From: Candidatus Omnitrophota bacterium
Lineage (GTDB): Bacteria; Omnitrophota; Gorgyraeia; VGKN01
Assembly: GCA_043800345.1 (NCBI GenBank)
Contig: JAZDNB010000009.1
Location: 27,340-91,339 of the forward strand
DNA length: 64,000 nucleotides
Direction of reading: 5' to 3'
Of this stretch, positions 18,201 through 58,400 are shown piece by piece; the first letter of the stretch is position 1, and each line of letters opens with the position of its first letter. A program made the translations under genes and the position numbers. The notes beneath the pieces were generated by a model. That model was not told the origin of the DNA, searched no databases, and saw nothing but the letters and a program-made list of their open reading frames with translations.

Positions 18201-21200
18201 GATGAGGTATTAAGGAGCGATGGAAAGTTTGCCCATCTGGTACGCCTTATCAGAGAAGATGGGCTCGAGAAGGCATTAGATGATGAGGATATCAGACGTT
18301 ACTTCAGCGCGACATTTGAAGACTCGCAACAGTTTGTTGACGATTTACTAGCTTCTCAAAAGGGGATAAGGACGATAGATGCAAGGGGCAAGGGAACGGT
18401 TCTTCTGAGCGCAAATGACTGCGGTCTAGAAGCGGCTATGCATATGATTCTTGCAGAAGCGCTGACCGATTGCAACTTTAAAGTCGTTATCACGGCAAAT
18501 AACAGTCCTATGGGGCATGATTTAGACGTACGAGACGTCCATGACTTATTCGGTAAAGACAAAAGCGCGGTAGTAAGGGTTTATGGAAAAGAACAATTGG
18601 TGAGCGAAGAATTGGTGCGCTGTTTCAACGAAGGAAGGGTGAGGGTTATTTCAGACGGTTCCGGCACCCGCGGTATCAATCCTGTCGATGTGAGTAGTGA
18701 TTTATACGATGTTATAATGAATCAGGAAGACGCATTGGCATGGATATTGACAGGCGGTTCAAACCTGTCGAATGTTCTTCCGGTGGGACGTGAAATTCCG
18801 CAGCCGAAACTTTACCTTGCTAACAATGACCGTAAAGTACAGATTGTTGTCGGCAAGGCAAATATGAATGTTGAAGAAGAAAGGGCCCTTATCTATTATC
18901 AGCCATATAAGAAAATCTTAAAAATGGAGAGGGATCTTGAAGAACAGTGGAGCGAAATTAGCGACGAATTAATGATTCAGCCCTCGTTTATGGTATGGAC
19001 GAGAGAATGGCACGATGAGAGAAAAGTGCCCCAATTTGCAAAAAATGCTACCTCTAAGATAAAGGAAGCGTTGAGATTTCTTGAAACAAAAGATGAATCG
19101 CTGATCCGCCGAGCACGGTTGCTTGAAGTTGAACTGGTAGAATCGGGCCCGCATATAAAAACTAGATTCCGCAGTAGTTTTGATAAGGTATTTTTTGTCA
19201 ATCCTAAGACCGGCACCGTCTATATAGACAAGAAATTTTTTGAATCCGTTATTGTAAGAAAAGACAGCGAGCTTATCCTGGCTACTATTTTAGGCAAAGC
19301 CGCTACTATGGTGCAATCCCTGGAGACCTATGAAAGGGAAAATCACATAATTTCAAAAGAAGCGATTAGCAGTTGCAACAGGCTGAGCGAGACAACGGGA
19401 AAAATGATCTATCTGGAATTTGATAATGTAGTCGATGATTTCTTGGCAACCGAAGAAACGAAAGCGGCAAGAAGCAGAACGGAGCGGTTTATTAATATAT
19501 TACCCGCCCGCATAAGGCCGGCAATATCAAGGAGTTTGGAGCAAATAAATACCCTGTTGCTTAAGGCCCTGGACGGGATTCACAAACGGCTCTGCGAGAT
19601 AGTGTTTAACCAAGCGCATCTCTCAAGATTGACAAATGACCTTGAGTTGGTTGCCGATGCGATTAAAGTAAAAGATCTGCGTAACAAGCGCATAAAAAAT
19701 ATCCTTAATGGTCTCGGCGGCTCGTTTGTGCGTTTTAGCACTCTTCGTATGATATATAGGGTTTTGATGTTTGGTAATTATCTTACCTATCGCGGCATAG
19801 GCAGAAACGGAGAGGTAAGAAGCGTAGCGCTTAACCATATAAGCAGCCATGGCGTTTACAATTTCTTACGGGTCATCGATGATTTTCAGAGGGGCAGAAA
19901 CGTTAATTTGGGAGAGCTTAGTGTATATGTCCAAAATTACTCAGAATTATTAAAAGATATCCGCAGCCACCTTGAGTATTTACAAACCGTACATAAACGC
20001 TTAGCGGCTATACCATCCGTAGAATACAGAAACGGTATTCATATAACCTATGAACGTTGGGCAGGAGGAAGTATTTATGAATTTGTCATCAATAACGAAA
20101 ATATATCCATAGGGGAAGTCGTAAAAGTCATAGAAGAAATCGCCTCAGAACAGTCGCATGAGCCCCGGACTCTGGAACCCGTAGGCGTGGTGAGAGAAAT
20201 GCCGACATTCAGGTTGCTTGGCAGGCCCGGCGTAATCGGCGGCTTCTTTAGAGTTCGTGGAGGAAAAATAGATGCAGGGATACAGCAGGTTATACTTAGT
20301 CAGCAGTCAGAGCGTCGCACAAAAGCCCAGGCGTATTTCCCAAAAAGAGAGGTTACCTACGGATATATTGCCCCTGAGGCATTGCATCCTCTTGCGGCTA
20401 CATTTATACAGATGAGAGAATTTTCTGATGACGCTGAGGGGTACAACGAGGCAGAGGATTTTGTAAACGCAATTACAAAAGCAAAAACCCCGAAGGATAT
20501 TCTCTATGCAGCATTTTTCCAGGCAATGACGCCTCACAAACCAAGGGAATTTTCACATAAAAAAACGAAATATATCTTGGACCTTGACCTTATTGAAATC
20601 TTAGGCGAGGTCTTATTCATTCTTGGGCAGTTCAAGGAAAGCGATTTTCCTGAAGGCAGTTACCTATATTGGCATGAGGCTATGAGGGCGCTGAAGGCCT
20701 CAATGCTTTCTCAGGAGGTTGCCTCGCACCAGGTGAGGTTAGATCCAATGGTGAAAGAAGTCGTTATAGATTTATTTAGCAAAATTAAAAAAGCAAACCT
20801 TCATAACCATCTTAGCGGATCGGTACGGCCTGAGCTACTGCTCATTACCCTCTTAAAAAGCTATAAGGCGCGCGAGAGATTTGTAGAAGTGATAGTTGTA
20901 AACGACGAGCAGGTCTACCGCAATAAAAGGAAATATAAGACATTGCAGGAGGCATACGAAGAAGACAAAACTCAGGATCCCCGCATAGAGGCGCTGAGTT
21001 TTAATGAATGGGTTGACCTTAAATTCCGCAGGGCATTTGAACTTCCTTCCGATTCAATGAAGATATTAAGTTCATTCATTTCGCAATATTCTGATACCTA
21101 CGGTTTTGACTGTCTCAGAGAGCTTGATATAAGAGAGCTTCTTAAGTCAGAGCCCGTACTTGTAGAACAATGGCAAAACGCAGTGCGCCATATGTGGTCT

Positions 21201-24200
21201 TTTATAGAGTATAAACCTTTTGAGGCGAGAAATGAAATTGACCTCATGGGATATTTTTATAAGCTTGAGCCTGTCTATTGCGTGCTTAAGAGCGACATCG
21301 GAAACGAGGCCACCCGTCTCTTTGTAAAAGATTTAGCCATAGACCTTTTTACCAAAGACGGGGTTAGAGTTTTTGAGCTTATGACCGCAGGTTCCTCCCA
21401 GACCGCGGTTATGGAAACGGGCGGTGTTATACGTCAAAAAAGCAGAGAAGCTATAGCCATAGAACTTGAAAATAAACTTGTCCCTACGCTTGAAGGATTA
21501 ATAGAGGCGGAAAAAGAACTTAACGGAAAGCTTGCCACGGGACTGCAGGTTCTTTTGCTCAAGGAGGACTATAGAAATTTGGGTGTTGAAAAAATGCGAA
21601 TAGAACAAGAAGCGCTCAGTCGTGCCGGAGATTTAAGCGGCGAAGATATTATTAAATATATATTAGGCCCATACAGACAGAGAACAGGCGTGACTAATGA
21701 AGATTTAGAACTTACTCTGGGAACAAGGGTTTTTAACAGAATGAGGAATGCCATGGGGACCGGAGGGGTGACCAGGCAGATAGCCGATGAAATAGGGCCA
21801 GAGGCACTCCAGAGGATATATGTACGTCTTGAAGTCCTGGCAAGGGTTCAGGAGGTTATCGACGCCCAGGTTGACGGTATTATTGCATTAAAAGAAAGAT
21901 GGCAGACTGAAAAGCCGGAATATGCCCAGCGTTTAGTATCTATTGGTACTGCGGGAGAGGAAATTGATTTTGTCTCTTGGACCCACAGAAGGGCGCTGCG
22001 CAAAGCCTCTCAATATGGTTTTAAAATTACCGCGCATGCTGGTGAAGAAATAAGAGATCCGATTGCGTCGGTGGAAAGGGTTAAGTATGTTGCCAAATCC
22101 GTGGATGACGGCGGCTATCAGGCAAACAGGGTTGACCATGCCACTATTATTTCGGTCCATCCGGAAAGACTGCAGGGTTTCCGTTCTCCCAGAGAGCTAT
22201 TTGAGTTGCGCCAAAAACAAATAGAAGCTACCCAGCTTTTGGTGCAGATGGGGGTTCCCGTTACCAAATGCCTGGTAAGTAACCGTTGGATAAGCAAAGT
22301 ACTCCTGGGGGATGATGAGATGCAAATACACTTTTTGTTAAAGATTATGCCTTCCTTGATTGTCCTCTCCCCGGACAACCGCCAAGTATTCGGCAGGGTT
22401 GATGGTGTATCGGAAGAGCTAATCCGCGCCGATACCTCTCCGACGCTTGAAGAGTTATGGGAGTATAATTGCAATATTCGCTACGGAGAATTGTTGACTA
22501 TTGTCGATAATGGTTTTCGGTCTACATTTGTCCAGCCGGAACGGGTGCAAAGCGTATTAGCTTCTGAGCCCGAAGAAACGTCCCGGCTAGCCGCTACCTC
22601 CGGTGCCGAAGAAGAAGCCATAGGCCCAGAGGAAGGGTTTACCGCGAAATCCCTTATAAGCATGTTTATCGGCATTGGCTTAGGCGCACTGCTTGGTATA
22701 GCCTTCCACAGCGTGCTTGCCGGCGGTATTGTCGGTTTTATTTTCTTTAGCCAGATACTTTCAATAATTATAGCGACTTCAAGGTTGAAACATCCGGTTC
22801 TTATAGAGGATGGTAACGTAAAAGCACTCAAAGAAAGACCTGCGCTTTCCAATTTCTTTAAGCTCGCAGGACATACCGCCGATACCGTATATATTAACCC
22901 TTACCTTCCGGAATTCTTCCAGAGATGGTACCTGTTCCACGAGCAGAATGAACAATTGCTGGAAAAAAGACTGCCCAAGCCCATTACGGAACTCATCGCA
23001 ACCGCCTTAGATGTCAGCTATATTCCTATCTCCGTAGGTAGTCTTATGCTTCAGAAGGCAAAGAGTATCCAGGCAAGAATACCCTCCGGTATTTTTGTAT
23101 GGAAAAAAACGGAAGCGTTTCCTTCCGTCCCAGTATCGTCAGGTCTTGATGAGCAGGTATTTGTAAGCGAAGCATCAAGGAGGGAAATCGTCTTTTTTGG
23201 CTCAGGATACATAGGTTTAGTTGCCGCCGCCTGTCTTGCGGATAAGGGGCACAACGTGACGCTTATCGATGTCAACGAAGATACGATTAGCAAATTGCAA
23301 AAAGGCGAGATCCATATTTATGAGCCCGGGCTTAAAGACCTAATAGCAAGAAATAAAGAACGGTTACACTTTGTGTTAAATAGAGCGGGTACCGATACCC
23401 CCGAAGCAGTAGCTGCCACAGAGAGAGCCGATATTATTTATACCTGTGTCGGAACGCCCCAGTCCGACGACGGTTCGGCAAATCTGACATACGTGAAAGA
23501 AGTCGCTACTACGCTTGGAAAGGTCCTTAAAAACGTCTCACGCGATAAGATAATCATCATGAAGTCCACGGTTCCCATAGGGACAACGGAAGGCGAGAAT
23601 TTCGGGGAGGTTATCTATTCCATTGTAGATGAACAATCGCGGAAGTTTATCCATCTTGTAGATAATCCTGAATTTACACGGGAAGGCCAGGCGGTTTCTG
23701 ATTTTATGAAACCGGATAGAACCGTGATAGGAATAAAAGAAGCCGATGCATATGCGCAAGCAGAGATGCGCCTTTTTTATTCGGCTTTCGAAGGCAAAGG
23801 ATACGGAGAATTCCTGCTCACCGACGTGCGGAGCGCAGAACTTATAAAATACGGTTCAAACGGTTTTCTCGCCCTCAAAATTTCATTTATCAACGAACTT
23901 TCTATTCTTGCCGAAAGGTTCGGATTCGATATAAAGATAATAGCCGATCATATCGGAAAAGACCGTCGCATCGGCAGGGCATTCTTAAATGCCTCCCTGG
24001 GTTTCGGCGGTTCGTGTTTCCCGAAAGATGTCCAGGCATTCTGCCATACCGTTGAGATGGCGGGGGTAAGCGATGAAATACCGCATCAGGTAATAGATGT
24101 AAACGAACGACAGAAGAAACGGTTTGTAAAAAGAATCGCCGATTCCTTAAGGAAAGTTGGCGCGCAGGGTCCGGTGACTGTTTCTGTCTGGGGGCTCGCG

Positions 24201-27200
24201 TTTAAGGATAACACCGACGATATACGGGAATCCTCTTCCCTGTATATCATAAGGGATCTTATTGAATCCGCCAAAGCAGCCGGTATTGATATAACAATCA
24301 GGGCCTATGACCCTAACCCGGGCGCATGTCATAATACGAGCTCAAGAACTATAGCCCAGGGAGGGCTTAAAGAACTTATCGACGAAGGAAGCGTCATAAT
24401 ATGCGACAATATCGAAGAGTCGCTTGAAGGCTCTTATGCGATGGTAATTGCCACGGAATGGAAGAATTGGTCAAGGCAGACAGGCAGACCTTTTGGCTTA
24501 AATGATAAGAAAAATCTAAGATACATAGAGGGACGTTTAAAAGGCAGGCTGATATTTGACGGAAGAAACCTCATCGACAAACCGGCACTGCTGGGGACAG
24601 GTCTTACCTATCACTCTGTAGGTCGGCCCGTCTATTACGGCAATTACATTAAAAATTTTATAAGCTCGTTCATAAATCTTTTTAGGCAATGCACCTTCTA
24701 TGGATATGTAATATACTATTGCCTCTCGACCCCCGGATATCGCAGGTTATTATTCAAGAAGGAAGGTCTTGGCTTTACCCTTTGGGAACTTGGCAGACTT
24801 TCAGCGCTTTATTTGAAAGCAACCTTTGCCTATATCATATATGAAGTTGCCGAGAATAAAGGAGCAAACGGCGACGAAGTGCTTAAGGGAATGGGTTATG
24901 ACAGGCGTATCGGCCCCGAATATTTTAAACCAACTCCGGGTAGAGGAGGCCCCTATCTGCCCACGGCAACGAAACTCCTGGTCCAGATAGGAGAAGATTT
25001 CCTCAAACGAGAAGACATTCCCGACGTTACCGATAAACAAAAGCAGCTTCGAGCCAGGGTAAGAAATCTGGAGTTATTAGCAAGCATCGATAAGGCCAAT
25101 GAAGGCCAGGTTATCAAGGTTATGGCGCGCTTAAGAACAGCCCTCGGCGTTGAAAAGGTTGCCGGCGGAAATATAGCCGTATTAGGTACCGCTTATAAAG
25201 GCGCGGCATCTTCTATAGAAGGTTCTGTCGCCATGCGCATTATCACAGACCACCTTGCCTATTGTAGTAGTATAGTAGTATTTGAGCCTGATCCCGAAGC
25301 AAGGGCCAGGGCAAAGAAGATGCTTAAAAATTCCACCAATGTCATTTTTGCCGAAAACATGGATGACTTAAAGAACAAGGCAAGGGGGGTCGGCGGGTTA
25401 GATGCACTCTTAATTCTCACTGATAATGAGGAATTTAAATTGCTCGATACCTCCGGTATTAGAAAGCGTACCGCCAAGATGGTCGTATATGATACCTGTA
25501 ATGTGACAGATCCGGCGAATTTTACGGACAAACCCCATGTTATTTATATCAGAACGGGAAGACCCATGTTTATGGGAATGGAAGTGCTTCCAAGAAACGG
25601 AAACAGAGGCTCGCCTGTTTTGGCGCGAGCAGCCGAAACCCAGCACTCTCTCTTGGTGTCAACCCTCTATAATAACTTTAATTCTGCCGGCACGATTATC
25701 ACACGGATTGTATGGGGCGTGCTGTGGCTTACTGCATTAGTGACAGTCGGGATAAGCCATGAGTTTACCCATATGATATCCGCCCTTAGCCTGTCCCTGA
25801 AAGTAACAAGAAAACGCGAATTCTACAAAGGCAATATTTCGATTGACGGACCTCCCCAAAGGGTTAATATTGCAAAGGCCCTTGCCCCGCTTGCCGGACC
25901 GTTTATCATCCCGCTTTTCCTAACCGCCGTTTCTTTACTGTTAAATGTTCAAATCGACATACCCAATTGGATAAAAATCCTCTACTTAGGTTTTAGCGTA
26001 GTATCTTTCATATATGACCTGTCGTCCGAAGGAGACCTTGCCGAACTATACCGTCCCCTTAAAGGGAGAGTTCAGAATTTCGCCTCAAAGTTATTCGGGG
26101 CCGATGCGAGCCTATTACCAAAAAAGATAGGATTAGCCGTAGTTATTTTCGGAACTATAGGCCTGCTTAATATTGTTTTAATGTGTATTTTTCTCCCATA
26201 TCCCGATGTATTACTTATTCTCTGGGGTAATTTTGGTTTTGGTGTTTTGCTGTTCATTTTTGCAATATTGGGATGGCTGGATACTCTATCCGAACGCATA
26301 GAAAAATTCTATTACATGCATCTATGGCAAAAAGCGCTCCCCTCATACTATACACACGAGGCTTGGAAGGTGGCAAAGGAAAACAGGGTTATTTTCCCAT
26401 ATCTACACGGAGAGGGAAGCAGGGTATCGGAACCGAATACGTACAAATATTTTACCCTTTTCAAATTCGGCGATCCTGAGGCAATAAGAGAATATTCGGA
26501 ATATATGGCGAGCCATATTCGCTATGACATTTCGTCGGATATAGAACCGGAAGAATCAGAATATTATGATTTTTTTGACCCCGAAAAATGGGTTGTATTA
26601 TCCAAGGTTCACCCGGTTCCACCATTACACTCGACACAAATGCTCGGACGTTTATTAGCAGAACGCCTTAAAGTTAAACTCGTAAGCCTGAACGAGCGCA
26701 GTTCTTTCGGAAACTACTCTAAACTTTCACTGGATGAGCGAGAAAAAGTAGTTTATGGGAATTTGGTTGTAGAAAATCCAGAAGAAGTGCGCGGTAAAAA
26801 TGTCATCATATATGACGATGTGAGTATAAGCGGTTTTACCCTGATGGAAATGGCCCGTGCGGCATTTGCGGCAGGCGCCAGGTCCGTAAGAGCCTATACG
26901 ATGTTTGATCCGAAAAATGACCCGAAGTTTGAAATAGGGGCATATAGATATCTGATGTATGAACATCCTGAACTTGTACTACCTATTTTGCAGAGCGATA
27001 TGTCCATAGCGCAGACAGCCATAAAATATCTGATGCGTTTTGCAAGCGAATCGCCCGATGCCTTTGAAAATTTGATGAGACAGGTGAAAGATGAGCGACT
27101 CAGAGAAATTTTAGATCTCGTTACGTCATACCTGCAAATTACATCAAAGGAAGATACGCTTAATCCTACCCCACTCTTTAACATCATTACATCGTTACTT

Positions 27201-30200
27201 CCTGCTCGTGCCTATGCAGAGCGTCCGGACTCCGAGGTTAAACCTGTCGAGATAGGTTTTGCTGTTACCGTTGATAGAGATGGCAAAACAGAAGTGGATC
27301 ATTCTTTAAATGCAAATGCAATCTTTTCTACGCCTGAGATAATAGAACAAGTCGGTGCTCATTTAGCAAAAGCCGTTGATGATAGTATCGACATAAGCAG
27401 GTTTACGCCAGGTGCATATCCGGCCGGGCTCCATATAGTTGCGCCTAATCGTTCCGGAATGCTGACTGCAATAGCATTAGAGAGACAGTTAGGGTGTTCC
27501 CTGCACCGTTTTGATGAAGATTTTCCATGGTTAAAAAAGGGCGATGCAATAATCATAGCTATAGATAAGCCAACCCGGGAACTTCTTAAGATATTAAAAA
27601 TATGCGAGGCAAAGGGGATTTTTGTAGCAGCGGTTTGTACATTGACAAAAAATAATATCTCTAATGTAGAGAAGTATTTAAAAAGGAAAGGCATTCCTTT
27701 TGTATCTTCACCTCATATTCATACGATGTTCGGGGATTTAAATGTTGATATGCAGGACAGAGAACTCTTAGCACCTTTGTTGACTGGAGAATCTTCTCTC
27801 GGCGAAAGATTACAAGGCCTCAAACAGTTAAAAGACAAATCGTTGCGGGGGACATTGCCAAATGAATTTTGCGATTCCATGTTAACCGCCATGGAGGACT
27901 GGCCGAGTCCTTCGCTTGCGGTATTATACGCTTATCAGATGGGCTATAACTACATTACTTTTACTGATAGGCGGGATATAACGCCTGAAGCAACCAAAGA
28001 GGCGCTCGAGGCCGCGCGAATACTGAAAATTTCCGTATGCAGTCCGTATTATACGACGCTTAAAAGGGCAACGTATTATCCCGAAGAAATTGCTCTGCAA
28101 ACGCAATTGCTTAGCGCCATCCCTGAACTTGATATGTTTCAGAGAAAGGTAAAAGAGTCCCGCGGGGTTCTAAAGAGAGGAATAGAGCACTTAAATAAAG
28201 ACGGTATCACGAGTCCTGATCCATACCTGGCATTATCGGCGCAATATTCAAGACAGATCGAAGAGATTGTGCAAGCCTTATGTCCGGTAGTGCTTGAACA
28301 TTTAAGAAGAACTATCCCCGGATTCAAATTAACAGAACAGGATTTTGCACTCTGCATAGGCGGTTCTGCCGCAGGAAGAACAGCTACATTAGCATCAGAT
28401 TTAGAGGTTGATTTTATTGCACGAGACGAAAAGAGCGCAGATGCCGTTACGGAACATTTTGCACCGCTACTAGCCCAGTGCTTACGAACAATCGGAATTG
28501 AGATAACGCCGCCCGATGACTTATTCCGCGCACAGCTTAGAGAACGCCATCTCATTAAAGTAGATAAGCTATTTGACTATCGGGTTGGGGCGTATTCAGA
28601 GCAGGCAAAAGGTTTAATTCGGGCGTTAAGCTATGAATTTGCGTGGGGCTCAAAAGATGTTTATAGTAATTTTATGGCAAGCGTACCTCCTGAACTTAAA
28701 CCCGATATTCCTCATGACATCATGTCACGTATGACAGAGTTCACCGATGGTTATCTGCGTCTATCCGAAGACGGAGAGGGGGAGTTTGACGGGCGTAATT
28801 TCGTAGTATCTGTTGATAGCGAGCGCGACTTAATAATGAACGTGCAGCGTTCATTAAGAGTATTCCAGATAGGTTTATTTGAGAGCCTGGTAAGGAAGTT
28901 GCCGCAATATCTTATGTCAGGTCTGAATCCATCGCTTACTGAGGATGCAATACCGCGAACTATCCCCGAACTTCTTGTTTTCATGAATGAGAGAGGATTT
29001 TTCGGAGATATTATTCCGCAGCAGGAAATAGAGAAGGTTGTTCTGGCCTGGAAACGTACTATTATGGCGCGCCAGATAAAAGTTGCATTAACAGGTGGGC
29101 TTAATAGTGCAGTCAGCTTAGGACAGTTGCCGCCTACGCTTTTGAATGATTTCGTAATCCTGCACGATTTTATCTTAAGTCATGTGATAACGAGAAGGTC
29201 TATTTTTCAGACTAAGATACAAAGATTATTGGGAGAACTGGCATTTTCCATATTTACACGTCTCATGAGAGATGCAGCGGATACTACTTATGATGAAAAT
29301 AGCAGACATTTTGATATCCGGGGGACTATGCGTCATGCTGTCACGGAACAGTCAAGGCTCTTAGAAGCCGTGCGCTATTTAAGGGAGGCGGCCGCTGCAT
29401 ATGCTGCTGGAGATGCGGAGGCATATGAAAAATCCCTGCGCGCCTACGGCGAATACCAGCGAGCTCTCTATGAAGATTTAAAAATTAATTATAGAAATAC
29501 GGATCCTTCGCTTGAGGTCCTCTGCGAATTCGCTAACAAGCTGCCCAAGGTTCTCGGTGCATCGCATATCCCCGGCTGGGGAGGAAATATCGGTATTTGG
29601 GCAGACGAAAAGGATGTAATCGCAATACGCAGAACAATAACAAACTTTATCCGCTCAGACGGTTATCGTAATGTACTTCAAAAACAATACCCAGATCTTT
29701 CTCCGAAGGAGATAAACGAAAAGGTTATGGCAACCGTTAGGGGAGTTATTATATTTACTCCCGGGCCTGCTGCAAATACCGTGATTGAGGGAGATGTAGA
29801 CAGATTGATAGAAGCCTTAAGGGATCCCAATTCTTCAACAGTTGCTTTATTAAAGAAAATCTACGGAGAAGAAGATACTTACAGGGATGGACAGAAATTC
29901 GCATATTATGAGCTGGCGCGCCAAAGATATCTCAGCTTGCTTGAGGAATTTAAGAGGCTCCATCCTGATGCAAAAAATATTGTCGTATCCCGAAGCGGTG
30001 GCAGGGTTATTTTTGCAGGGACACATTCAGATTATCACTACGGGAGGGTTCTTAATGCACCTACATTATCCGATACTCTGGTTGTGATGGCCATAAATCC
30101 ATTGTCGAATCAGGTTCAGGCAAACACCATGGATGAATTATTCCCGCAAGCCAGTTTTAATCCGGAACGCCTTGATATTATAAACATTCCAAAAGAAGAC

Positions 30201-46400: not shown

Positions 46401-49400
46401 TACTTGGAGGCAGCCAGGATATTGATCCTGAGCTTATTGACGCCGAAATATTAACAGCATCTAACGGCGAGGCATTCTTATTGTATCTTGATGATAGAGA
46501 CGACAGATGGGCGGATATTTTTAGACGGAATCAGAGTCTGAGCTGGGGGCATGTAAAAGGCCAGCCTCATAAAATCAGGGTTTTGTTAAGGCATCATACG
46601 GGTATCGGCCCCATGAGCGATACCGCAAGCCTCAACTGGGATTTGCCCGAAGTAAGAAATTGGGCGATAGGTATCCTTCGCGGGTGGCACGATGCGGGGA
46701 TTGACGGTTTTCGATGTGACCTTGCGCAAAATGTCCCCGATATATTCTGGAGAGAAGCAAGAGCCGCTTTATCTGGGGCAGTCTTTTTGCATGAAGATTA
46801 TGCTTCGAGCGAGCAAAAAAGAATAAGGCAGACAGTAACGGGCGTAGATGGTTTTTATAACCATGAGCTTTATAATGCCATGCGCGAAAAAAATCCTCAG
46901 CGTATCCGAGATTTACTCGCTCAGCAGGCTTCTTACCTGCGGCATTTAGTCAATTATATGGGCAATCATGATGAGAAATTGGCATTAGCGATTTGCGGAG
47001 GGAACAGAGACCGCCTTATGGCGGCCGAGACAATTATCCAGACCTTGCCCGGTTATAGTATGTATTACTGGGTGCAGGCAAAGGGATGGCAGTGGCAGGG
47101 AGAAGAAATCAAAAGAGAGCTTACCTATGAATCTTTTATGGCACTCTCGGAAAAAGAGAAAGAAGACCCCGCGGTTTTAAGCGGATATAGAAAATTAGAG
47201 AAAATAACGGATCAGCCCTTGTTTAAGGATAGTGCCGAGATTACCGTTCTTGAGTCAGATAACCCTTCTTTTGTAGCATATAGAAGACATTGCCTAAGCG
47301 AAGAGTTCCAGGATGAAAACGCCGTAGTTATTGTTAATTATTCTGACAGCGCAAATATCGGAACGGTTAAATTAGTCCCTGAACAATTGGGCGCTCCCGG
47401 GGGGGCAGAAGAGCGATATTTTTTCCTTTACGATACTATCCAGGATAAGTTGTACCTCTATACTGACAGTGAACTAAGAGATTTCAAACAGAATCTGGTG
47501 CCATGGGAAAGCAGGGTATATCTTGTAAGAGAGATTCATAACCCAAGCGAGGTACTTAAATCGTATAAACGCGGTTTAGGAGATATTAAACTGTTGAATA
47601 TAGAAAAATTATCAGAGCAATCCCTTCCGGTTAGCCAGAGACTGTTACTTCAGGCTGAGATTGGGAGGTTCGTAAAAGATGTCGGGACGGGAAACGGTAG
47701 TTTTTTACAAAAGATGGAAGAAGTTTTTGGTTGGGAAAAAATTGATTGTGACGAGGCTTCCAATATCTTTGCACTTTTATTGCAGGAAAAATTCAGAGAA
47801 CTCGGCTATGAAATTCCGATTTCAGCAACAGGTTCAGAGAGAATACAGTTTATCAATATGGAGGTCCAATCGGTTGCAGTACGCCCCTGGCCGCATTATT
47901 GCATTGTTGTATATTGGGATAATAAACCATGGCTCTATATCGACTCATCTTTTTCCAGATTCTTCAGGTATGACAGAGAACATACCTATGAGGTTTTATG
48001 TGAACCTCTTGACTCGGTAAGTGCATCTCGGATAGAACAAATCATAAGACAAAAAGGTGTCGAGGTGGGTATACTTACGGTTAATGCGGATGAGAAATGG
48101 CATGTACCCTCTTTTGATTCTGCCGCTGTCAGGGATACGGTGATGAAAAATGCGAAGATGCGAGCCGTACTTATGTGGTTTTTACACTCTGCACCAAGAG
48201 ATGAAGAAGAGGTAGCGCCCGCGCAAGCGCGTACCGAGAGAAAAGAAGAAAAAGCGCGTTCTGCCGTATCCTGGGTCAACATTGGCGTTGCAAGCCTTGT
48301 AGTGGGCGTCATTGCTATTCTGCAATATATGAATGTACTCCCTTACCAATATCTCGGCCTTATAAGCTTTATTTATTTTATTTCATTTTTGATTATCCAT
48401 GAGCTTGGCCACTGGAAAGACGCCGGTTTTAGAAAATTTTCCTTCGGTGAACTCTTTACCAGAGAAGGTATCTCAATTCCCGACTCGGAAGGCCTGCCGG
48501 GGATTGTTACAAGTTTAGGCCTCGTCTTCTGTTTATCAACCCTCTTTGTGGTGTCATCTTTATTCCTGTCGCACTATTCAGCGTATCTTATTCCCGCAAT
48601 TGTCATAAATTTAATTTTTGCCTTATCGGTAGGGGACTGGAAAAAAGCACTCATAGAGACAAAGATTGACCGTCCCCTGCGTATACTCACCCCTCTTGGA
48701 AAACGTGCGCGGTTAATAATAAACGAATATGCCCCGTTCCTGCGCAGGGCGGTTACTCATCTTAACGATAACCAGATAGGGCTTATCAGTTTAGCTGCGC
48801 TGGCCGTACTTGGTGCGCTCGTTATAGTGTTGAGAGTTGACGTGTATGCGGTGCCCTTAGCAGGTCTTAGTATACGCAAGGTTTCAACTAACGGCCCCGG
48901 CGGCGATACCGATAGTTCTTCCGCAAATGCCTTGGCCGCTCATATAAGGCAGGAATTCGGAAAACCAGAGCTATATCTTAATAAGCCCGCATTTACAAAG
49001 CAGGAAATACGCCAGCTTCTTAGTTTGCTTCCGAGCATGAAGAGCCGCATGAGGTATATAGACCAGATAGTAGAACGTATCGTGTATGCGCGTAGAATAA
49101 AAGAATTTGAATCGCTTGACGATTTGCGGGTAAGGGCGCGCCTGCCTTACCGAGTAATGAGAGATTTTGAGCTTTTAATTACCGGCGGCGTGCTTATGGA
49201 TGTCCCCTTGGGGGAAAGAAGGCTTGTGCATAAGAGGGCCGTAAGAGAGCCGTTAAGCGAAGAGGTTATTAGTACGGGCCAGATAGTTTCAGAAAGACTT
49301 TCTCAAGAGACAGAGCGGTTGCGCGACATATTCAAGCTTTTATCCGCCGTCGGTAAATCCGAGGATCTTCCTCGCGGTATAAGAGATGAATTGGAACGCA

Positions 49401-52400
49401 GGGGGTATCACGCATTATTTAATCTCTCGCCGGCGTACCAAGAGGCATTATTGCTGCTTCTTGAAATAAAATTTCTCTATAGCATTAGGTTCACCGCGCG
49501 GGAGCGAACCAGATATCTTTTGTATGTAGAGGCTCATGATAAACGTAAATACGAATTATTTATGCGGTTGTCAGCCAAAGATCAGGATTCGGCTGCTATG
49601 GTACGCAGGAAATGGTTTAAAGGTATTGATATTGCACTGCTCGCCGAAGAGATAGCGCTCTATCTTAAGGGGGAGCATCCTCGCGACAAGGCATTTGCCG
49701 ATTTTATTAAGGTTGCAAGAAGAGGCAAGGGCAGGTTGCTGCTCAATGAGCTTATAAAAATACTCTCCCCGCTTTCGCAAAACGCTCTCTCCCTTAATTT
49801 TTCAAAACGAAATTTAAGGCTCGCCTATCTTCTTAAAACATGCAAAGAAATTCTAGGAGAGGTTACAAAAGAAGATAAGGCCGGATTATTGCAGTCTCTT
49901 AATATTCCCTCGGAAGACGACCTTTTGGCTATAGATATCGGGATACTTAAAGAGAGCATTTATAGGCTTAGACAATATGGGCTTACCGTTACCGCAGAAA
50001 GGCTAAGGCTTGACGAAGGCGAGATAGCGGGAGAGTTTCAAAAAGAAATTGCCGGTTTTATAGGAATGCTTGCAGGAAGCGATGAAGAGCAAATACGAAA
50101 TGCGGTGCAGAGACTTAAGCTTATGTATATGCTGCAACCAAAGCTTTTCATGAAGGGTACCTCCGATGGAAAAGACCTGGGTAGTCATAGGTCTTCCATC
50201 GTCCCGGTAAAGAGCGCGGTAAAACTTACTTATTTCGGAGGGGATGAAATAAACTGCGGTGGAATACTCATAGAAGACGGCCGGGAAAAATTAAAAACGA
50301 GCCTGCTCATTGACCCCGGTATAAGCATGGATAGAGAAGCGGAACTCTATTCTAAGATATATATGCGCGACAGGGTAGTGCACCTGGGGATAAGAGACCG
50401 GCTTATTAACGGTCTTATGCCAAGACTTAAGGGCTTATACAGGCCGGACCTTACCGAACCAAGCATGAAAATATCGGCTGCTACGCCTCCCGTAGACGGT
50501 ATTTTGGTAACACACGCTCATATAGACCACATAGGAAATATTGCGTATATCAGGAATGATATCCCCATATGGGTAAGCCCCGAGACGCGTGCGGTTTTAC
50601 GCACATTGGATAAAACAGGCGCAGACATAAAAAATGAATATTTTGATTTTGTAGACAGAGAAACCGGAAGAATGATCCGCAGAAAGATAAATGTGTTTGA
50701 ATATGATGTGCCCTTTATGGTAGGCAAACTTAAGGTTATAGCTAAGCGCGTTGATCATTCGGCAGTAGGTGCGTGTGCGTTTTTTGTAGAAACATCCCAG
50801 GGCTGGGTTTCATATGTCGGGGATATGAGGATGAACTATTCAAGAGATACCGCGGGTACGCTACGGTCGTTTAAGAACCGGACAGAGGATTATATCGAGG
50901 CGGCGCGTCAGCTGTCTCCCGTGGTGCTCTATATAGACGGAACAAATTTTGAGAAACCTCATACCAAAGATACCGAAGAGGATATCGGCAAAAGAACAGA
51001 TGAGCTGTTACAAGGCGATGAAGTAAAAAGAAAACCCGTAGTAGTGAGTTTTAGTTATTTAAATCTGGAAAGGATGAAAATCTTTCTTGAGGCTGCGAAA
51101 AGAAACGCAAGAAAGCTTGTCATCTCCATGAAAGAGGCATATCTGCTTGAATCTCTTAAAGAGATTTTCCTTAGAATGTACTTGGCAAAAAATGGATTTG
51201 AAGAGTTGATTATAATCGTCGATAGGGCAGATATGGCGGCGAGGGTATTACTCCACAGGAAAGAAGAGGGGGCGTTACGCGATGTCATGCTTTGCGGAGT
51301 TATGGTACATATGGAGAACTATTATGCAAGTGGGCTTCTACAGGCTTGTATGGGTTCCGTTGATGCACAACAAGCACAATTAATAGCCTTGGCGCTCGGT
51401 TACAGCAAAGGCAAGCCCCCTAAAACCGACAAGGGCATACCCGAAGCCCGAATAGAGGAATTATTTACCGGCGAAACCGCAGAGGCCATTGCGGCGCGTG
51501 CCGTATTTTTCAAGTGGTTGCATGGTGTGCAAGAAGTTAAGGCGCCGGATGAAATAATGGAGCAGATAGCCGGGCGTTATGTGATTGAGCAGGGCATGGT
51601 GAATGCTGAGGCGGAAAAAGTAAAAACCGAGGGCCACGAGATGCAAAAGTTACTTAAAGAAACCTTTGCGGTATTAGAAAAAACTAACCTGGAAGATCTC
51701 TCCGAGAAAATAGAAAAATTTAGCATGGAAGATTACGGCTATCCCGATCTTGAAAAGGAAGAAGGGTTGCTCGTATATCAGGCCAGAAAAAAAACCGGCA
51801 CATATGACGAAACAAAAGATTACCGCAGGTTTGAAAGGTCCATTCTTGCCAACCCGCGCATACGACGGATAAGAAAAGAAGAAGCCGCTCAACAAAAAAG
51901 CGAACTAATGATTTGTCTTAATACCTACGAGATATCCGAGATACTTGGTATTTTTAAATACGGAGAAGGCGGGGTACATATATATTCTCAATCGCCTCCG
52001 TTTAACGTTGAAACCGAGATAGCCGAAGATAAACTGGATGAATGGCTGGCTGATTATAAAATGACCAAGCGCTATATCCATGCCTCCGGCCATCTTACGG
52101 CAGAACAGATTCCCGATGCGGTGCGCACGATACAACCCGCAAGCGTTTATGTAGTCCATTCCAAAAACAGGGGGTCGCTTGCGCGGATGCTGAGAGAAAA
52201 TGTCATGGCGCAGGGACAAACTACTGTAGTGCTCTACGCCAAGCAATATTCCCTGCTTGAAGGTGAGAGCCGATTTGAATCCCTTCCGGAAGATGTTGCA
52301 AAGATGCTCCCTGAAGCCTCAAGGATATTTTTAAGCCGTCTTACCAAGGACCAGATAGCGGGCATTGTCGAGGAACTGAGCGTTGTCAAAAAGGACGTTA

Positions 52401-55400
52401 CCATCCAGGAGGAAATAAGCGCTATCTTCAGGGATGCGAAACGAAGAGCGAGAATTTTTACGTATGCAGAAAGGCCGGATTCAAAAAACATCGATGATAT
52501 TGCCGATAAAATAGAAGAGCTGCGGCTGTACTTTAAAAGTCAGCTTATAAGGATCCAGATGCAGGAAATGCTCGGTGTGGTCTCCGGTGAAGAACTAAAA
52601 AATGCGAGGTTGGTTCTTTCTGACCGTATCTTCAATGCGCTTGTTGATGAAATAGCAATGCCAAGCCTGATAGCGAGGCTTACCGATAGCATAAAAGAGA
52701 ATACCGGCATATCAATGACAGCGGCGCGAAAAGAAGCGAGAAACATATTTGTATACAGAATAAAGAGAAAATCCGCCGCATTGCTTTTCCATCACTGGGA
52801 AGAGACTAGGGGACCGCTTCGCTTTATGATGATATTTAAGGAAGGCATGAAACCGCTCTATGCCAAACTTGTTACCGGGATAGTTTATGATACCGTAGCG
52901 GAATTTTTTAAAGGATTAGAAGGCGAATTCGAACTTCCCGTACCCGTTGGCGGCAGCATAGATGCCGCAATACGAATAATGGCAAAAGGAGAGCAGGTAC
53001 TCCGTGAGGATGAAAAGGAATATGCGAAAGATATCATCGACGGCCTTGTAATGGCGGTAGCGGACAAAGATCTTATGAAGCAGTTAAAGACAATGGCTCT
53101 TCTATATGCAAGCAGGGGCGTGAGCAGATTACGCAGACGTCCCGAGCAAGGACCAACGCCTGTCGACAGGACCTATGAGGCTATAGTCAATATTATAACA
53201 GAGCTTATTCAAACTATAGCAAGCGGTGATGTCGTGCTTTCCGAAAAACAAGTGAGCGCTTTTTCCTCATTGATAGCCACGAGGATTCTTTCGGAGGTAG
53301 CAAGACAGTTGACGTCGGGAGAAATTACGCTGTCTGAGTTGGCGCGTATTTTAAGGAGCCTCGGTGCCTTAACCGCCTCCCCCCGTAAATCATCACCCGG
53401 ACAGAAAGAACAAGACACAGGTATAAGTATTTCTTCTCCGATAAAAGATATCATCGTTTCGGTAATAACGCGACCTCCTGCAGTTTTAATTGGCATGGAA
53501 TTAATACTGGATATCGGTAACCGTAGTGCGCTCTTTAATTCCATCACTCAATTTTTAATGTACGGCGGGAAAATTATTATGAGCGTGGAGGCAGACAATT
53601 CACAAGTTACCTATGAATTCAGAAAGGCCTTGGTGACATATATCAGGGGTCTTTATCCGTTGGGCGCGCCGGAAGATATGACAGGCGGAATAATTTTAGA
53701 GGATAGCGGAAGGTATTATAATCTGGATAATATATCTTTAAAAGACATTCCCAGGACAGATGTTACCCTATCAGATGATAAACCCCTCAAAGAACAGCTT
53801 GAGGAGCTCATAAAGATCATACGAAAGCAGACCAATGAGATGAGTTTAACCGAGGAAACCGAATGGTATAAAACAAACATAGCTTTGCTTGCGCAGCATG
53901 GTTTAGCGGACAAAGGTGATAAACTTGCACGGGATAGATTTTTACCCCACAAAATTAAACTTTTGAAAGAATTCTCTCTTGACCTGGGGATGATTGATAG
54001 GTATGCACTTTCGACTCTCCAGAGGCGTATCGCAAATCTTAAAGCATACGGTAGCGAGGTAACCGCCAGCAATCTTAGATTGACAAAAGAGCAGTTAGTC
54101 AGGACATACCGCACGACAGTATTACAGTTGCTTCAGAAAGAGCCTGCCGAAGATGTGATCGTGCGCCTTAAAGAACTTTTTAAACTTCAACCCGCTTTAT
54201 TTATGTCAGTGACTGCGGGAGGACGTTTGCTCGGGCAAAGAAGAAAAGATGTAATACCCGAGGCAGTAGGAGGTATTACCTTCTATGGTTCCGTAGGCAA
54301 GATAGGTGGCAATATCATAATGGTTCGGGATGTGGACAGTAAAATAGTTTTAGATATGGGTGCCGCAGGGCACAGTTGGGGAGAATATTTTTCCGGGTGG
54401 AGTAGTTTTAAAGTTCATGAGATGGTAGACGGAAGTCTTGAAGTTGGAATATTGCCGTGGTTGCCTGATGCCATGAGGGAGGATATGTTAAAAGGTAAAA
54501 GCGGCATGATTCCTATCGAGAGCCAAGGCGTAAAGGCGGTTCTTCTTACCCACGCACATCTTGACCATGTTGAGAGCCTTTATGCTCTTGATCCGGATGT
54601 GCTGGTTATTTGCTCCGAAGAAACAAAAGCGACGCTGGAAACGCTTCAGTGGCAGACGCCGGGGAGCATTAGGACGGAGTTAGTTGAGGTAAAAGACAGA
54701 ACCGATATGACTACCATTCCTTATCCGAGATTACCGCGTAACATGGTTACCTTCAGGAGGGATACCCCGTTTCAGGTAGGTTCTTTTAAAATAACGCCTG
54801 TGAGGGTGGGGCATTCCGTACCTTCCGATGCCTTTGTAGTAGAGACTTCTATGGGTAAGATCGTATATACCGGTGATCTCACCGTGCAGAGTCATGACGG
54901 GGCCCGTACGAGAGAATTTTTTGATATGCTTGCTAAAGAACATAATATCCTTGCGCTTATCACGGAAGGCGTTAATGTGCGTTATGAAAAACCCGCTACC
55001 ATCGCAACCGAAGAGGAATATGCACAACGCACAGACCAGATTATCAAGGCGTCAAAAGGAAAGCCTGTTTTTACAAGTTTTTCCTGGATGTATGTGAATA
55101 GGCTTAAAACGTATTATGCACTTGCCAAGGCAAATAAGAGGAAATTAGTAGTACCTCTTAGGAGTCTCTATTATGCGATGAAATTACGCGAACTCGGTTA
55201 TGATATACCCGACCTTTTAAGCGATCCGGATGTGCTCGTTCATGTTCCGGAGAGAAAATGGCAGTACACTATACATCAGTTTATCTATCAGTTGTTCGGA
55301 AAGGTGGCCGACGTAAGAGGAACAAAGGTCAGGCAAAAATTGCCCACCCAGACTAAGATATACGGCGAACTTCCCGACGAAAGAATGGTTAATTCGGAAT

Positions 55401-58400
55401 GGTTATCCAAGGCGCGCAATTACCGCGACCTTATCGTGATCTTGCCGCTTCCTCAGCTTAACGAATGGGATACTATTTTACCCCATTACGATTCGCCTTT
55501 TATATATTCATTAGGAGCGGTATTTAATAAGGACATGGAACAGCTCCAGGAAAAAATACGTCAATGGACAGATAAATACGAATTGGTCTGGGAGAATCTG
55601 TATGTATCTCCCCATATAGAAGAAGCGGACCTGGTCGAGGCAATACGTAGGGCGGTTGATGCCGGTTCTAAGTACGTACTCCCCATTCATACGGAATTTC
55701 CCGAGAGGTTCGGACAGCTTCTTCCGTCATCTGACGCATTCATGTTGTCTGAACCGCTGAGAGAATATACGCTCTTAAAAAGCGAGGATAGGGTCCGTAT
55801 TGCGCATTCCATGCTTCAGATTGAGGGCTTAGAGGGCCCCTTAGTTGATTTTATTAACAACGCTACGGATGCTGATAGTATCAGCCTGCTGGAAGATGTA
55901 CATAGTACGAAAGATAAGACTCGGTTTGATTCGGAAATAAAAAGTTTGATTACGGATTTTGAATCAAAGGTTATGCGGGTTTCGGAGGAAGATTTTGTTC
56001 GTATTGTCCGCGCATATGTTACGGGCCAGACTCTCAGATTAAGGATACGCGCCGAATATTCGCTTGCCTCTGCGGATGAAATAGCCAGAGAATATGCAGC
56101 GCTTTATTCGGCACTGCTTGAGACTGTGGTAGGATTTAACAGATTAAATAATCCTTTACCGGATTTACGTATGTTTGTCGCAGTAGTCGTAGGGGATTTC
56201 TCGAACATCGGAAAAAATCTTAAAGACGCGCAGATTATCTTCACGTATGATGCCCCAAGGGAAAGTAAGGGCGCGCGGAGTGCGGTAATCCTCAGCCGCC
56301 TTACCTCGGAAATGATGTACAAAATAACGGGCGTAGTAGGCATCGATCCCGCAAACGATTTTGATAAAAGGTTATCTTTCGTAAGAGAAAGAATAAATGC
56401 CCTGAATTTCTGGACGGTCAAAAGAAACCGCGATAAAGCAAAGCTTGCGTACGCACCTGCCTATGCAGGAGGCGGCGATGCCACCCTGGTGCAGGAATTA
56501 GCAACGATTCTTAAGACCGCACGTGTCATACAGGAGAGAGAAGTTATAGCAGAACTGCCTGATGGCCTAAAGGAGATATTTGAACCCTTGCGCGGAAAGC
56601 TCTCCAGGAATTCCGAAAGGCTTTTGGGTAGATTAAAAACAGCCGACGCCGTGAGACTTTTGAATTCGCTCTCAAGAGTAAAAAGCCGTGCCGATATGGA
56701 GACGGAACTCGCCCAGTATGAAAGGATAAAAGCTACCGGTAATGCGGCGTTATATTACTACCAGGCTCAGATGTTGCGCCTTGAGGTCGCCGGTATATAC
56801 CATGCGGTAAGCGACGATGAGTTAAGAAGTCAGAAGATTATCCTTGCCGGGTTATGCAAGATAGAGACCTCGGTCGCAGAAACTAAGCCTCAAGCAGAAC
56901 CGCCTGTTATGGTAAGCGCTCAGATGTCTATCCAGCAACAGGTGGAACGTGCATGGCAGGATGAGAACGGGCAGTTAAACCAGATAAAAAGGCGCCTTGA
57001 AGGTTTAATAGAAGAGATAGCGCAGGGCTATTCCCTTGTAGTTATTGCCCCTCATAATCTTGTTGGCTTGCCCATAGATGCCGATTCTTTCACTTTTGCC
57101 ACAACCGTATATCACAGGTTAAGCAGTGAGGCGGAAAAAATAGGAAGAAAGGTAGTTGTTATTACCGATCCTTCCGAGGCAAAAGATGCCGCGAATACGC
57201 TTTATATTTGTATTTTTCCGATATCTCATCAAAACGAAGGTTATGTGGATGCCGATAAACAAATGCTTCGCCTGCCGGAGGTAAAAGGAAAACGGGCCCT
57301 ATTCGTAGGAGACGTTCGCTTTTATCAGCCCGACGCATACAAGCGGAAGGATTCCTTCGGTTTTGATACGATGGTCGTTCAGGATCATCATCAATGGAAC
57401 GATGAATTTATAGAGAAAATGGATGCTTTTTCCGACGAACACACGCTTTTTGTTAACAACCATCTCATACTTAAAGATGAAAAGGCCGATACCTATGCTA
57501 CCGGCGCATTCTGTGCAGACCTCATGGGGACGGAACTTGATCCCTGGTATCTCTTTGCAAAACAATTATCCCTTTTTGGCGATAAGTATCACTTGCATTT
57601 TTCAAAGTTTACTCAAGGGCTTGATGTAAAAGAGGCTGAATATGTCGCTGAAATGCTCACCCTATGCGGTACATATCTGCAAGGTTGGAGCGCAACCACT
57701 GTCCAAAAAAACAAGGTTGTGGCAGAGATTATTGAAACGGTTTCTTCAAGCGATTCTTTCGGCCAATTAAAAGAGAACCTTGAACGAATTACCTCCCTCA
57801 AATTCGGAGCTGATTTTACAAAATGGCACAGGGGCATTATGCAAGACGTGGAAGATTCTATAAGAGATTTTCTTGTCTCTGACGACAAGATTTATTTTTA
57901 TCGCATACAATCAAAAGATAACATAGCGCTTCTTGTTCATAGGATAGTATTCGGCCGTCTTAACGCACTGGGTGAATTTAAAGACAGGATACTCATACAT
58001 TATTATGTCAGAGAAGACGGCAATCTGGATGTGCTTTTAGCGCGGGGGTCTGATTTTACCGCAATCGATGTAAGCGATGTATGTCTGCACGGTCCTGAGG
58101 GAAAATCCTGGGGAGGTGGACATAAAGACCGGGCAGGTTTTAGTACGGCAAGTGTAAAGGAATGGATGGGTGAGGACGCAGAGCAGGGCCAGGAAAAAGT
58201 GCTGGATTTCATTCTTTCCAACCTCAAGGAACAATACGTCCGTTACTATGGGCCAATACGTTATATAAGCGATGTTCATGGTAGCCCTGAGTTGGTAGAA
58301 CAGCAACTTATAGATGCACTTACATGGGCGGGTAATGGCGGCATAGTGATATGCGAACAACTTACCGAAAAGGATCTTGACATATACAGAAGAGTGGCGC

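Follow-up and report, generated by a model that had tools for sequence, protein, structure and literature searches.

Two giant genes of a Candidatus Omnitrophota bacterium: divergent enzyme modules, predicted membrane clusters and an adjoining efflux locus

What do two adjoining giant genes, each encoding a long series of enzyme modules, do for the bacterium that carries them? The question is raised by a stretch of 64,000 nucleotides from a Candidatus Omnitrophota bacterium (assembly GCA_043800345.1, contig JAZDNB010000009.1, positions 27,340 to 91,339), the whole of which we call the window. What Omnitrophota giant genes do is still under discussion in the field, the published readings being prey cell-wall attack, secreted carbohydrate-active enzymes (CAZymes), and cytoplasm-facing enzyme arrays. 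For the region 20750-58200, a first-pass annotation had proposed a membrane-embedded salvage factory, in which an organism with reduced biosynthesis would convert nucleic acid and sugars scavenged from a host into nucleotides and activated sugars.

The explanation that we favor, at somewhat better than an even chance, is that the two genes (ORF1 and ORF2; ORF, open reading frame) specify a membrane-tethered, largely cytoplasm-facing multi-enzyme array. The region would then comprise the 3' 40% of one Omnitrophota giant gene and the whole of a second, and each polypeptide would be a chain of highly divergent enzyme modules that have kept their catalytic motifs. Hairpin and four-helix clusters, several with an HExxH...D signature, would tether the chain to the inner membrane. 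Its modules would serve two themes: (i) UDP-sugar and glycan/alpha-glucan chemistry, represented by modules of the GalK-like, UDPGP-like, UDP-glucose dehydrogenase (UDPGDH), GT4, GT5, GH13 and pfkB types, and (ii) nucleoside, nucleotide and RNA handling, represented by adenosine deaminase (ADA)-like, phosphoribosyltransferase (PRTase) and uridine-kinase-like modules, two beta-CASP nucleases and a DHH-like region. [quoted passage not shown]

Reading frames and enzyme modules

Four genes, all on the + strand (ORF1 to ORF4), occupy the window; beyond these, the only ORFs of at least 150 amino acids (aa) are three short antisense frames. The giant genes are the first two:

1-34280, + strand: giant gene ORF1, an open frame of >11,425 aa
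34427-59404, + strand: complete giant gene ORF2, 8,325 aa

From its first listed start, ORF1 (153-34280, + strand) encodes 11,375 aa. Because no stop interrupts its frame back to window base 1, and the window opens with 50 codons that repeat a membrane module found twice more within ORF1, we place its true start upstream; the 5' end lies beyond the window and the total length exceeds 11,425 aa. Stop-free frames of 34 kb (ORF1) and 25 kb (ORF2) at a GC content of 44% cannot have arisen by chance. The ORF3 product is 100% identical across 899 aa to the NCBI entry 'MAG: TolC family protein [Candidatus Omnitrophota bacterium]' (MAG, metagenome-assembled genome), and this match places the window in an Omnitrophota genome.

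Enzyme modules were sought by Pfam and NCBIfam scans on overlapping 1,000-aa tiles, together with motif searches and PDB sequence searches. Recognizable modules account for ~30-34% of each giant protein and membrane clusters for ~5-7%. The enzyme modules of ORF1 are:

8298-9797, + strand: sucrose-phosphate synthase (SPS)-like GT4/GT1 glycosyltransferase module (aa ~2716-3215; TIGR02472, 197.8 bits against a cut-off of 576)
20775-22532, + strand: ADA-superfamily deaminase module with a ~350-aa insert (aa 6875-7460; HxH, HxGE, H, D)
23184-24581, + strand: UDP-glucose 6-dehydrogenase module, three domains and catalytic Cys (aa 7678-8143)
24807-25514, + strand: second UDPGDH copy, comprising the central and C-terminal domains, N-terminal domain missing (aa 8219-8454)
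26616-26933, + strand: type I phosphoribosyltransferase module (aa 8822-8927; motif VIIYDDVSISGFT)
29943-30542, + strand: galactokinase-like GHMP kinase module (aa 9931-10130)
33234-34187, + strand: pfkB-family sugar kinase module (aa 11028-11345)

The UDP-glucose dehydrogenase assignment, made already in the first-pass annotation, is unambiguous by sequence: the module scored 428 bits with TIGR03026 (cut-off 189.8), aligned full-length to PDB 2y0e (286 bits) and keeps the catalytic GGSCFPKD. It is the only module of the giant proteins to pass a curated family cut-off; the remainder match at the level of the superfamily. The SPS-like glycosyltransferase is real, at ~198 bits, but sits at ~8300-9800, outside the region for which it had been listed. 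The predicted adenosine deaminase retains all ligand and catalytic residues, and its HxH, HAGE, third His and Asp are invariant in an alignment of three with two distant giant proteins, P0001 and P0002 (described below); its score with TIGR01430, however, was 35.8 bits, below the equivalog cut-off of 216.55, and a PDB sequence search with the ADA region of ORF1 gave no match. Where PRTases had been listed in the plural, we found one type I module and no second copy. The galactokinase call retains its motifs (GRVIFAGTHSDY, PVGAGLSSSAA and CGAQDP), but the match to TIGR00131 reached 61 bits against a cut-off of 226.65 and covers the N-terminal half only. Finally, the supposedly ribokinase-like pfkB module is a pfkB kinase, but one that scored higher as a 1-phosphofructokinase/hexose kinase (63 bits) than as a ribokinase (40 bits).

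The enzyme modules of ORF2 are:

36359-37348, + strand: uridine-kinase/PRK-like P-loop module with a ~120-aa insert (aa 645-974)
39194-40126, + strand: UDPGP-family (UDP-sugar pyrophosphorylase-like) module, motif-based (aa 1590-1900)
43193-43837, + strand: GT5 glycogen/starch-synthase-like N-terminal domain (aa 2923-3137; 53 bits)
46304-47470, + strand: GH13 alpha-amylase-family module (aa 3960-4348; GFRCD and NHD; weak GlgE_C match)
49919-52276, + strand: beta-CASP metallo-beta-lactamase nuclease module 1, RNase J-like (aa 5165-5950)
53981-55756, + strand: beta-CASP metallo-beta-lactamase nuclease module 2 (aa 6519-7110)
57044-58126, + strand: DHH/DHHA1-like phosphoesterase candidate, from motifs only (aa 7540-7900)

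The uridine-kinase-like region is a P-loop module whose top PDB match is 3w8r, although it scored 50 bits against a cut-off of 180. For the module annotated as UDP-glucose pyrophosphorylase, three UDPGP motifs were present (LMGGLASRMRK, PWGHAEF and NVDNSGAKID), although the Pfam match reached only E=0.14. Both the glycogen-synthase-like glycosyltransferase and the GH13 module were found as annotated. The GT5 domain is bracketed by two paralogous domains of ~410 aa with 35% identity (40943-42175, aa 2173-2583, and 44693-45922, aa 3423-3832), which gave no Pfam match and nothing meaningful in a PDB profile search. The two regions previously called RNase J are complete beta-CASP modules (HAHIDH, SGH and VVHS in module 1; HAHLDH, SPH and PIHT in module 2; motifs B and C in both), but at 63.7 and 23.7 bits both fall below the RNase J cut-off of 400, and their nearest PDB relative is the uncharacterized 2az4, with RNase J next. 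The nanoRNase remains a candidate from motifs only, with IDADS (the DxD motif), DHH and GGGH at plausible spacing; Pfam, NCBIfam and PDB searches of this region gave no match, and its AlphaFold model had a confidence score (pLDDT) of 37.

Thus most of the enzyme calls in the two chains were recovered by Pfam, NCBIfam, PDB or motif searches, and catalytic motifs were present rather than degraded in >10 modules, as would not be expected of dead enzymes. The predicted sugar arm is coherent, leading from the GalK-like through the UDPGP-like module to UDPGDH and then to the GT4 and GT5 modules, with GH13.

The two proteins gave some further matches. Two ARMT1/DUF89 damage-control phosphatase-like modules lie either side of a GlmU-like left-handed beta-helix (hexapeptide) segment in ORF1 (15900-18720, aa ~5250-6189); directly upstream of the first is a tandem duplicate of a ~80-aa unit with 69% identity (15444-15950, aa 5098-5266). 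A DUF294 nucleotidyltransferase-like match is located at 28254-28511 in ORF1. The best NCBIfam matches of the PRTase module (26616-26933) are very weak ones, of ~20 bits, to the ComF/GntX DNA-utilization proteins, and a weak helix-hairpin-helix match (HHH_6, E=0.06) occurs at ~49064-49204 in ORF2 (aa ~4880-4926), just past the last transmembrane (TM) helix described below. Together, the ComF/GntX-like and HHH_6 matches hint at nucleic-acid uptake, but are too weak to interpret.

Membrane clusters and predicted topology

On which side of the membrane would these modules act? By Kyte-Doolittle hydropathy, ORF1 has ~20 strong hydrophobic segments and ORF2 ~12. Hydrophobic 19-mers cluster at aa ~4025-4257, 4601-4829, 7500-7540 and 8515-8705 of ORF1, and at aa 11-29, 1385-1501, 2618-2676 and 4614-4802 of ORF2. 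A further segment of ORF2 (aa 2396-2414) was rejected as a TM helix, because it falls within a repeated globular domain and is missing from the paralogue of that domain. The membrane features are:

1-250, 12150-12575 and 14277-14702, + strand: degenerate copies of the HExxH module (ORF1 self-comparison)
22650-22772, + strand: two-helix membrane hairpin, from hydropathy (ORF1 aa 7500-7540)
25695-26282, + strand: four-helix cluster with HEFTH...GD, a distant HExxH module copy (ORF1 aa 8515-8710)
38555-38962, + strand: HELGH four-helix membrane module, copy 1 (ORF2 aa 1377-1512)
42263-42466, + strand: membrane hairpin whose first helix ends in the lipobox LLTGC (ORF2 aa 2613-2680)
48260-48832, + strand: HELGH membrane module copy 2 (48260-48667, ORF2 aa 4612-4747), followed by a fifth TM helix (ORF2 aa 4612-4802 in all)

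The lipobox completes an internal lipoprotein-type signal, KTLRK-LFFLLVISGFVLFLL-TGC, in the middle of ORF2 (42263-42334, aa 2613-2636).

Judged by the positive-inside rule, each four-helix HELGH module and each two-helix hairpin begins and ends on the side rich in lysine and arginine (K/R), i.e., N-in/C-in. The cluster that separates UDPGDH, which uses NAD, from the PRTase, GalK and pfkB modules, which use phosphoribosyl pyrophosphate (PRPP) or ATP, contains four helices, so that these four modules should share one side of the membrane; their need for cofactors indicates that this side is the cytoplasm. The modules dependent on ATP, UTP, NAD or PRPP are probably on the cis (cytoplasmic) side, and most of the enzymes would face the cytoplasm.

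The C-terminal part of ORF2 is predicted to differ. The fifth TM helix, which follows HELGH copy 2 (48776-48832, aa 4784-4802), has the top hydropathy in ORF2 (score 2.87), and the 47 residues preceding it include ten K/R. Hydropathy revealed no convincing TM helix in the 3,523 aa that follow (to 59401), a stretch containing the two beta-CASP nucleases as well as the DHH-like region; none of these hydrolases depends on a cofactor. Because a strong N-in/C-out helix with none convincing after it would leave these modules on the trans side, the nuclease/phosphoesterase tail of ORF2 is probably at the outer face of the inner membrane. The predicted side is ambiguous for ORF2 aa 1-1380, the part in which the uridine-kinase-like module lies.

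Self-comparison showed that the membrane clusters are paralogous: the two HELGH modules of ORF2 (aa 1377-1512 and 4612-4747) are 63% identical, and ORF1 aa 4000-4141, aa 4709-4850 and the copy at the start of the window share at least 82% mutual identity. In the ORF2-type layout, HELGH ends helix 2 and N-x8-D(W) ends helix 4. Across 16 aligned copies, drawn from 12 proteins, the HExxH and downstream Asp were invariant; three copies in ORF1 lack the first His. Between the paralogous copies in the window, the ratio of nonsynonymous to synonymous substitution rates (dN/dS) was 0.19-0.30, so that the membrane modules are under purifying selection.

The HELGH module is also rare. Among 1.84 billion cluster representatives, a profile search recovered only 10 proteins that carry it, nine of them 1,017-5,918 aa in length, while a word-based homologue search and a metagenome scan were both empty. 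The other carriers contain HTH_8, HD, HAD, methyltransferase, phosphorylase, GT87, sigma-70 region 4, AceK/ABC1-like kinase and HATPase_c domains, and have nothing in common with ORF2 apart from the module; the presence of HTH_8 and sigma-70 region 4 again indicates the cytoplasmic face. The HExxH module had no match in Pfam (M50 or other protease family) and no PDB profile match, and AlphaFold modeled the HELGH form as a low-confidence four-helix bundle (pLDDT 56).

Efflux genes, related genomes and alternative explanations

Downstream of ORF2, where the first-pass annotation had placed an envelope-spanning AMIN-TolC/HlyD exporter, are two genes, listed here with the promoter-like sites ahead of ORF2 and ORF3:

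34298-34326, + strand: promoter-like site TTGAAA-17-TATAAT (11/12), in an AT-rich 146-bp gap ahead of ORF2
59580-59608, + strand: perfect sigma-70 consensus promoter TTGACA-17-TATAAT (12/12), 147 nt ahead of ORF3 and kept in L002
59755-62454, + strand: ORF3, outer-membrane factor (OEP/TolC family; OEP 109 bits, UVR, marginal AMIN)
62500-63852, + strand: ORF4, RND-type periplasmic adaptor (MFP; TIGR01730, 217.8 bits against 94.9)

An OEP gene and an adaptor are indeed present; the AMIN match is marginal, however, and the adaptor is of the RND type rather than a type I HlyD. An RND pump would lie past the end of the window, and such pumps are visible in two syntenic loci, L001 (GCA_964506845.1, CAZDNS010000010.1) and L002 (GCA_020052955.1, JAGVOB010000152.1), whose TolC proteins are 56-59% and adaptors 66% identical to those in the window. 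There the order is giant gene, outer-membrane factor (OMF), MFP, TPR/PDZ protein, HAMP protein and ACR_tran pumps, and this continuation suggests that the exporter is an RND-type tripartite system. Type I secretion of the giant proteins through TolC/HlyD was rejected in view of the RND adaptor and the ACR_tran pumps of the relatives, and is also contradicted by the many TM helices of the giant proteins and their lack of an RTX-type C-terminus.

No terminator was found after ORF2. Because the efflux genes have their own consensus promoter, conserved in L002, they look like a separate transcription unit; they are linked to the giant genes by position only. The ORF3 leader (59615-59760) has an unusually stable fold, at -44.4 kcal/mol (z = -4.1), and one part of it is an 8-bp perfect hairpin, CTATGAAC...GTTCATAG. 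This leader is absent from L002, which has the promoter, and is different in L001; Rfam gave zero matches across the window or in the leader.

A giant gene occupies the corresponding place upstream of the efflux set at both related loci; it encodes >8,467 aa in L001 and >9,075 aa in L002, in each case ended by the contig end. Our comparison covered the last 2,182 aa of the L001 protein and the last 3,283 aa of the L002 protein (6.5-9.8 kb; L001 1-6547, L002 1-9849). These visible C-termini align to ORF1 and ORF2 at the HELGH module only, so that orthology was rejected, and they carry enzymes other than those of ORF2: a signal peptidase II (Peptidase_A8) domain in L001 (~4517-4726), and HATPase_c, DUF218, methyltransferase, GNAT and Fe-ADH domains in L002. 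The two giants share modules with each other in a different order (L001 giant aa 1-420 with L002 giant aa 2857-3265, 49% identity; aa 1656-1814 with aa 1768-1926, 68% identity), which points to module shuffling within this class of giant genes. In the visible portions, the enzyme content of the locus appears to have been replaced far faster than the neighboring genes, which argues against a conserved pathway.

Several points weigh against a cytoplasm-facing enzyme array. (i) The topology was derived from Kyte-Doolittle hydropathy and K/R counts alone. (ii) By charge, the ORF2 helix at aa 11-29 is N-in; the uridine-kinase-like module would then lie outside, unless the chain is brought back by a weak helix at aa 347-365. 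(iii) About 60% of the residues in both giant proteins have no recognizable domain, so that a pathway can be read from the smaller part of the sequence only. (iv) The substrates of all modules except UDPGDH are guesses, their scores being far under the cut-offs. (v) The complete turnover of enzyme content in the visible parts of related genomes is unexpected for a core metabolic array. (vi) Some multi-enzyme giants have been read as periplasm-facing (Nielsen and Lui 2026, 10.64898/2026.06.07.730766). We nevertheless consider a membrane-tethered array the best account of the locus, and set the alternatives against it below.

The first alternative is the reading from which we began, that ORF1, ORF2 and the exporter form one envelope-spanning system by which a reduced epibiont or predator degrades host RNA and glycans externally and turns the products, once inside, into nucleotides and activated sugars. 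Were it true, the scavenging of nucleotides and sugars, and not cell-wall lysis, would be what ties giant genes to host dependence. The enzyme set and its motifs agree with it, as does the predicted cis/trans split, with the nuclease and DHH-like tail beyond an N-in/C-out helix and the salvage kinases, PRTase and deaminase on the cis side. An ADA-like module also accompanies an RNB ribonuclease in the Elusimicrobia giant P0001, Omnitrophota are thought to be host-associated, and a giant gene adjoins the efflux set in three genomes. The route, however, has gaps: scans of the window (Pfam E<=1, NCBIfam E<=0.01) revealed no nucleoside phosphorylase, 5'-nucleotidase, nucleoside monophosphate (NMP) kinase or nucleoside/base importer, and steps that would connect NMPs to the kinases and PRTase are missing there. 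The pfkB module is nearer to hexose-phosphate kinases than to ribokinase, the nanoRNase call is one of motifs, and the enzyme set is not kept in the visible C-termini of the syntenic giants. Next to the giant genes lies an RND efflux set, a system of export and not of import, with a conserved promoter of its own. The assumption that biosynthesis is reduced in the organism is weakened, moreover, because biosynthesis of nucleotides and of all 20 amino acids is encoded in >75% of 204 Omnitrophota species representatives (Seymour et al. 2023). A salvage factory that feeds on a host is plausible in part, while the integrated envelope-spanning system seems to us unlikely.

We regard as similarly doubtful, although compatible with the favored array, the possibility that ORF1 and ORF2 are self-processing polyproteins, in which the HExxH...D modules, and possibly the internal lipobox, would cut a chain of fused operon products into separate enzymes. 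The invariance of the HExxH and Asp residues speaks for this, as do the position of the modules between enzyme blocks, the purifying selection upon them and their occurrence almost only in very long proteins. The lipoprotein-type signal within ORF2 and the signal peptidase II domain in the L001 giant are further points in its favor, and West-Roberts et al. (2023, 10.1101/2023.11.21.568195) posed the cleavage of giant proteins as an open question. Against it, the module resembles no protease family by Pfam or PDB profile, its model is of low confidence, and the first His is missing from three of the ORF1 copies.

Nucleases and deaminases are common toxin domains, and may be counted in favor of a third alternative, in which the giant proteins would serve as weapons, either exposed at the surface or delivered, with nucleases, a deaminase and sugar enzymes that act on prey cells or within them. 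The very fast turnover and shuffling of modules between related genomes would also suit an arms-race locus, and predation is a published hypothesis for Omnitrophota giants (West-Roberts et al. 2023). Scans of the window, however, revealed no signal peptide, adhesin, dockerin, lytic transglycosylase or cell-wall hydrolase, and genes for type II secretion or type IV pili (T2SS/T4P) are absent from the visible flank. Most of the modules, moreover, need ATP, UTP, NAD or PRPP, and the positive-inside rule places them on the cytoplasmic side; we judge this alternative quite unlikely.

Elements of these accounts can be combined. ORF1 and ORF2 might be topologically partitioned self-processing polyproteins, in which the HExxH...D module releases or positions blocks, with an outward nuclease/phosphoesterase arm coupled to an inward nucleoside/base salvage and UDP-sugar arm; each gene would then be a scavenging line across the membrane, its enzyme content rapidly swapped between related genomes. 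We hold this, too, to be rather improbable. An assembly chimera or a decayed, non-functional gene, for which no evidence was found, is extremely improbable, given the 34-kb and 25-kb stop-free frames, the >10 modules with catalytic motifs, the low dN/dS between paralogous copies and the giant genes at the same position in two other assemblies.

Comparison with known systems

The efflux genes have the arrangement of RND tripartite systems of the AcrAB-TolC type (OMF-MFP-RND), in that ORF4 passes the adaptor model, ORF3 belongs to the OEP family and the relatives continue with ACR_tran pumps. They differ in the N-terminal extension of ORF3, which contains UVR and a marginal AMIN match, and in the TPR/PDZ and HAMP proteins that the relatives have between adaptor and pump.

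In layout, the HExxH membrane module resembles the core of the site-2 proteases (peptidase M50), a likeness that is no more than a lead. Both have HExxH at the end of one TM helix and Asn...Asp at the end of a later one, within a compact helical module. In the module described here, however, the Asn-Asp spacing is one residue longer, the Pro of NxxPxxxLDG is missing, no M50 match was obtained and the module is repeatedly embedded within giant proteins.

A homologue search with ORF1 aa 6866-11375 returned only two distant giants, P0001 (5,860 aa; Elusimicrobia MAG RA.bin80, JAKLIF010000001.1) and P0002 (4,423 aa), both at the ADA-like module, and a genome-contig scan with the ADA-like alignment returned the P0001 locus only. 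They share with ORF1 the same unusual ADA-like subtype, with its ~350-aa insert, at 23-25% identity over ~600 aa and with all metal ligands kept. P0001 also has an RNB exoribonuclease (172 bits), and P0002, like ORF1, has ARMT1/DUF89. P0001 differs in phylum and in neighboring genes, and neither giant aligns outside the ADA-like module.

The closest known systems are the giant proteins already described from Omnitrophota. West-Roberts et al. (2023) reported 'Archaeovorin' giants of >30 thousand aa, with many TM helices and with HEAT, GT5 and GT1 as the commonest domains, and speculated that degradation products pass into storage glycans. Nielsen and Lui (2026) described a class of 'multi-enzyme metabolic clusters', in which starch-synthase, GT1, sugar-metabolism and kinase modules occur together with HEAT scaffolding. 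Of the 916 proteins in their catalog, all of at least 10 thousand aa, 94% have a signal peptide or TM helices, and singletons make up 80% of the sequence clusters. Inner-membrane-anchored, cytoplasm-facing enzymes are one surviving hypothesis in that study.

ORF1 and ORF2 differ from these giants in several respects. They are smaller, at >11.4 thousand aa (ORF1) and 8.3 thousand aa (ORF2, under both thresholds), and their visible neighbor is an RND efflux set, not T2SS/T4P. Scans of the window, which starts inside ORF1, found no SecA_DEAD, C39/S8 peptidase, methyltransferase or NUDIX domain. The window also has a nucleotide arm (ADA-like, PRTase, uridine-kinase-like, two beta-CASP and DHH-like modules), and term searches of West-Roberts et al. 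(2023) and Nielsen and Lui (2026) returned no mention of a nucleotide-handling arm or an HExxH module. The locus adds one further example to a described class without settling the function of that class, and it is small enough to be tractable, offering a predicted cis/trans split, a candidate processing site in HExxH, and module shuffling at one syntenic position.

The likenesses are the following: the same phylum; many enzyme families that tile ORF1 and ORF2 with none dominating, HEAT, GT5, GT1/GT4 and kinases among them; multiple TM helices, at a few per thousand residues; and sequences that are highly divergent and poorly conserved between genomes. The placement of ORF1 and ORF2 with the best support is among the multi-enzyme giant membrane proteins already described from Omnitrophota, as new and comparatively small members of that class.

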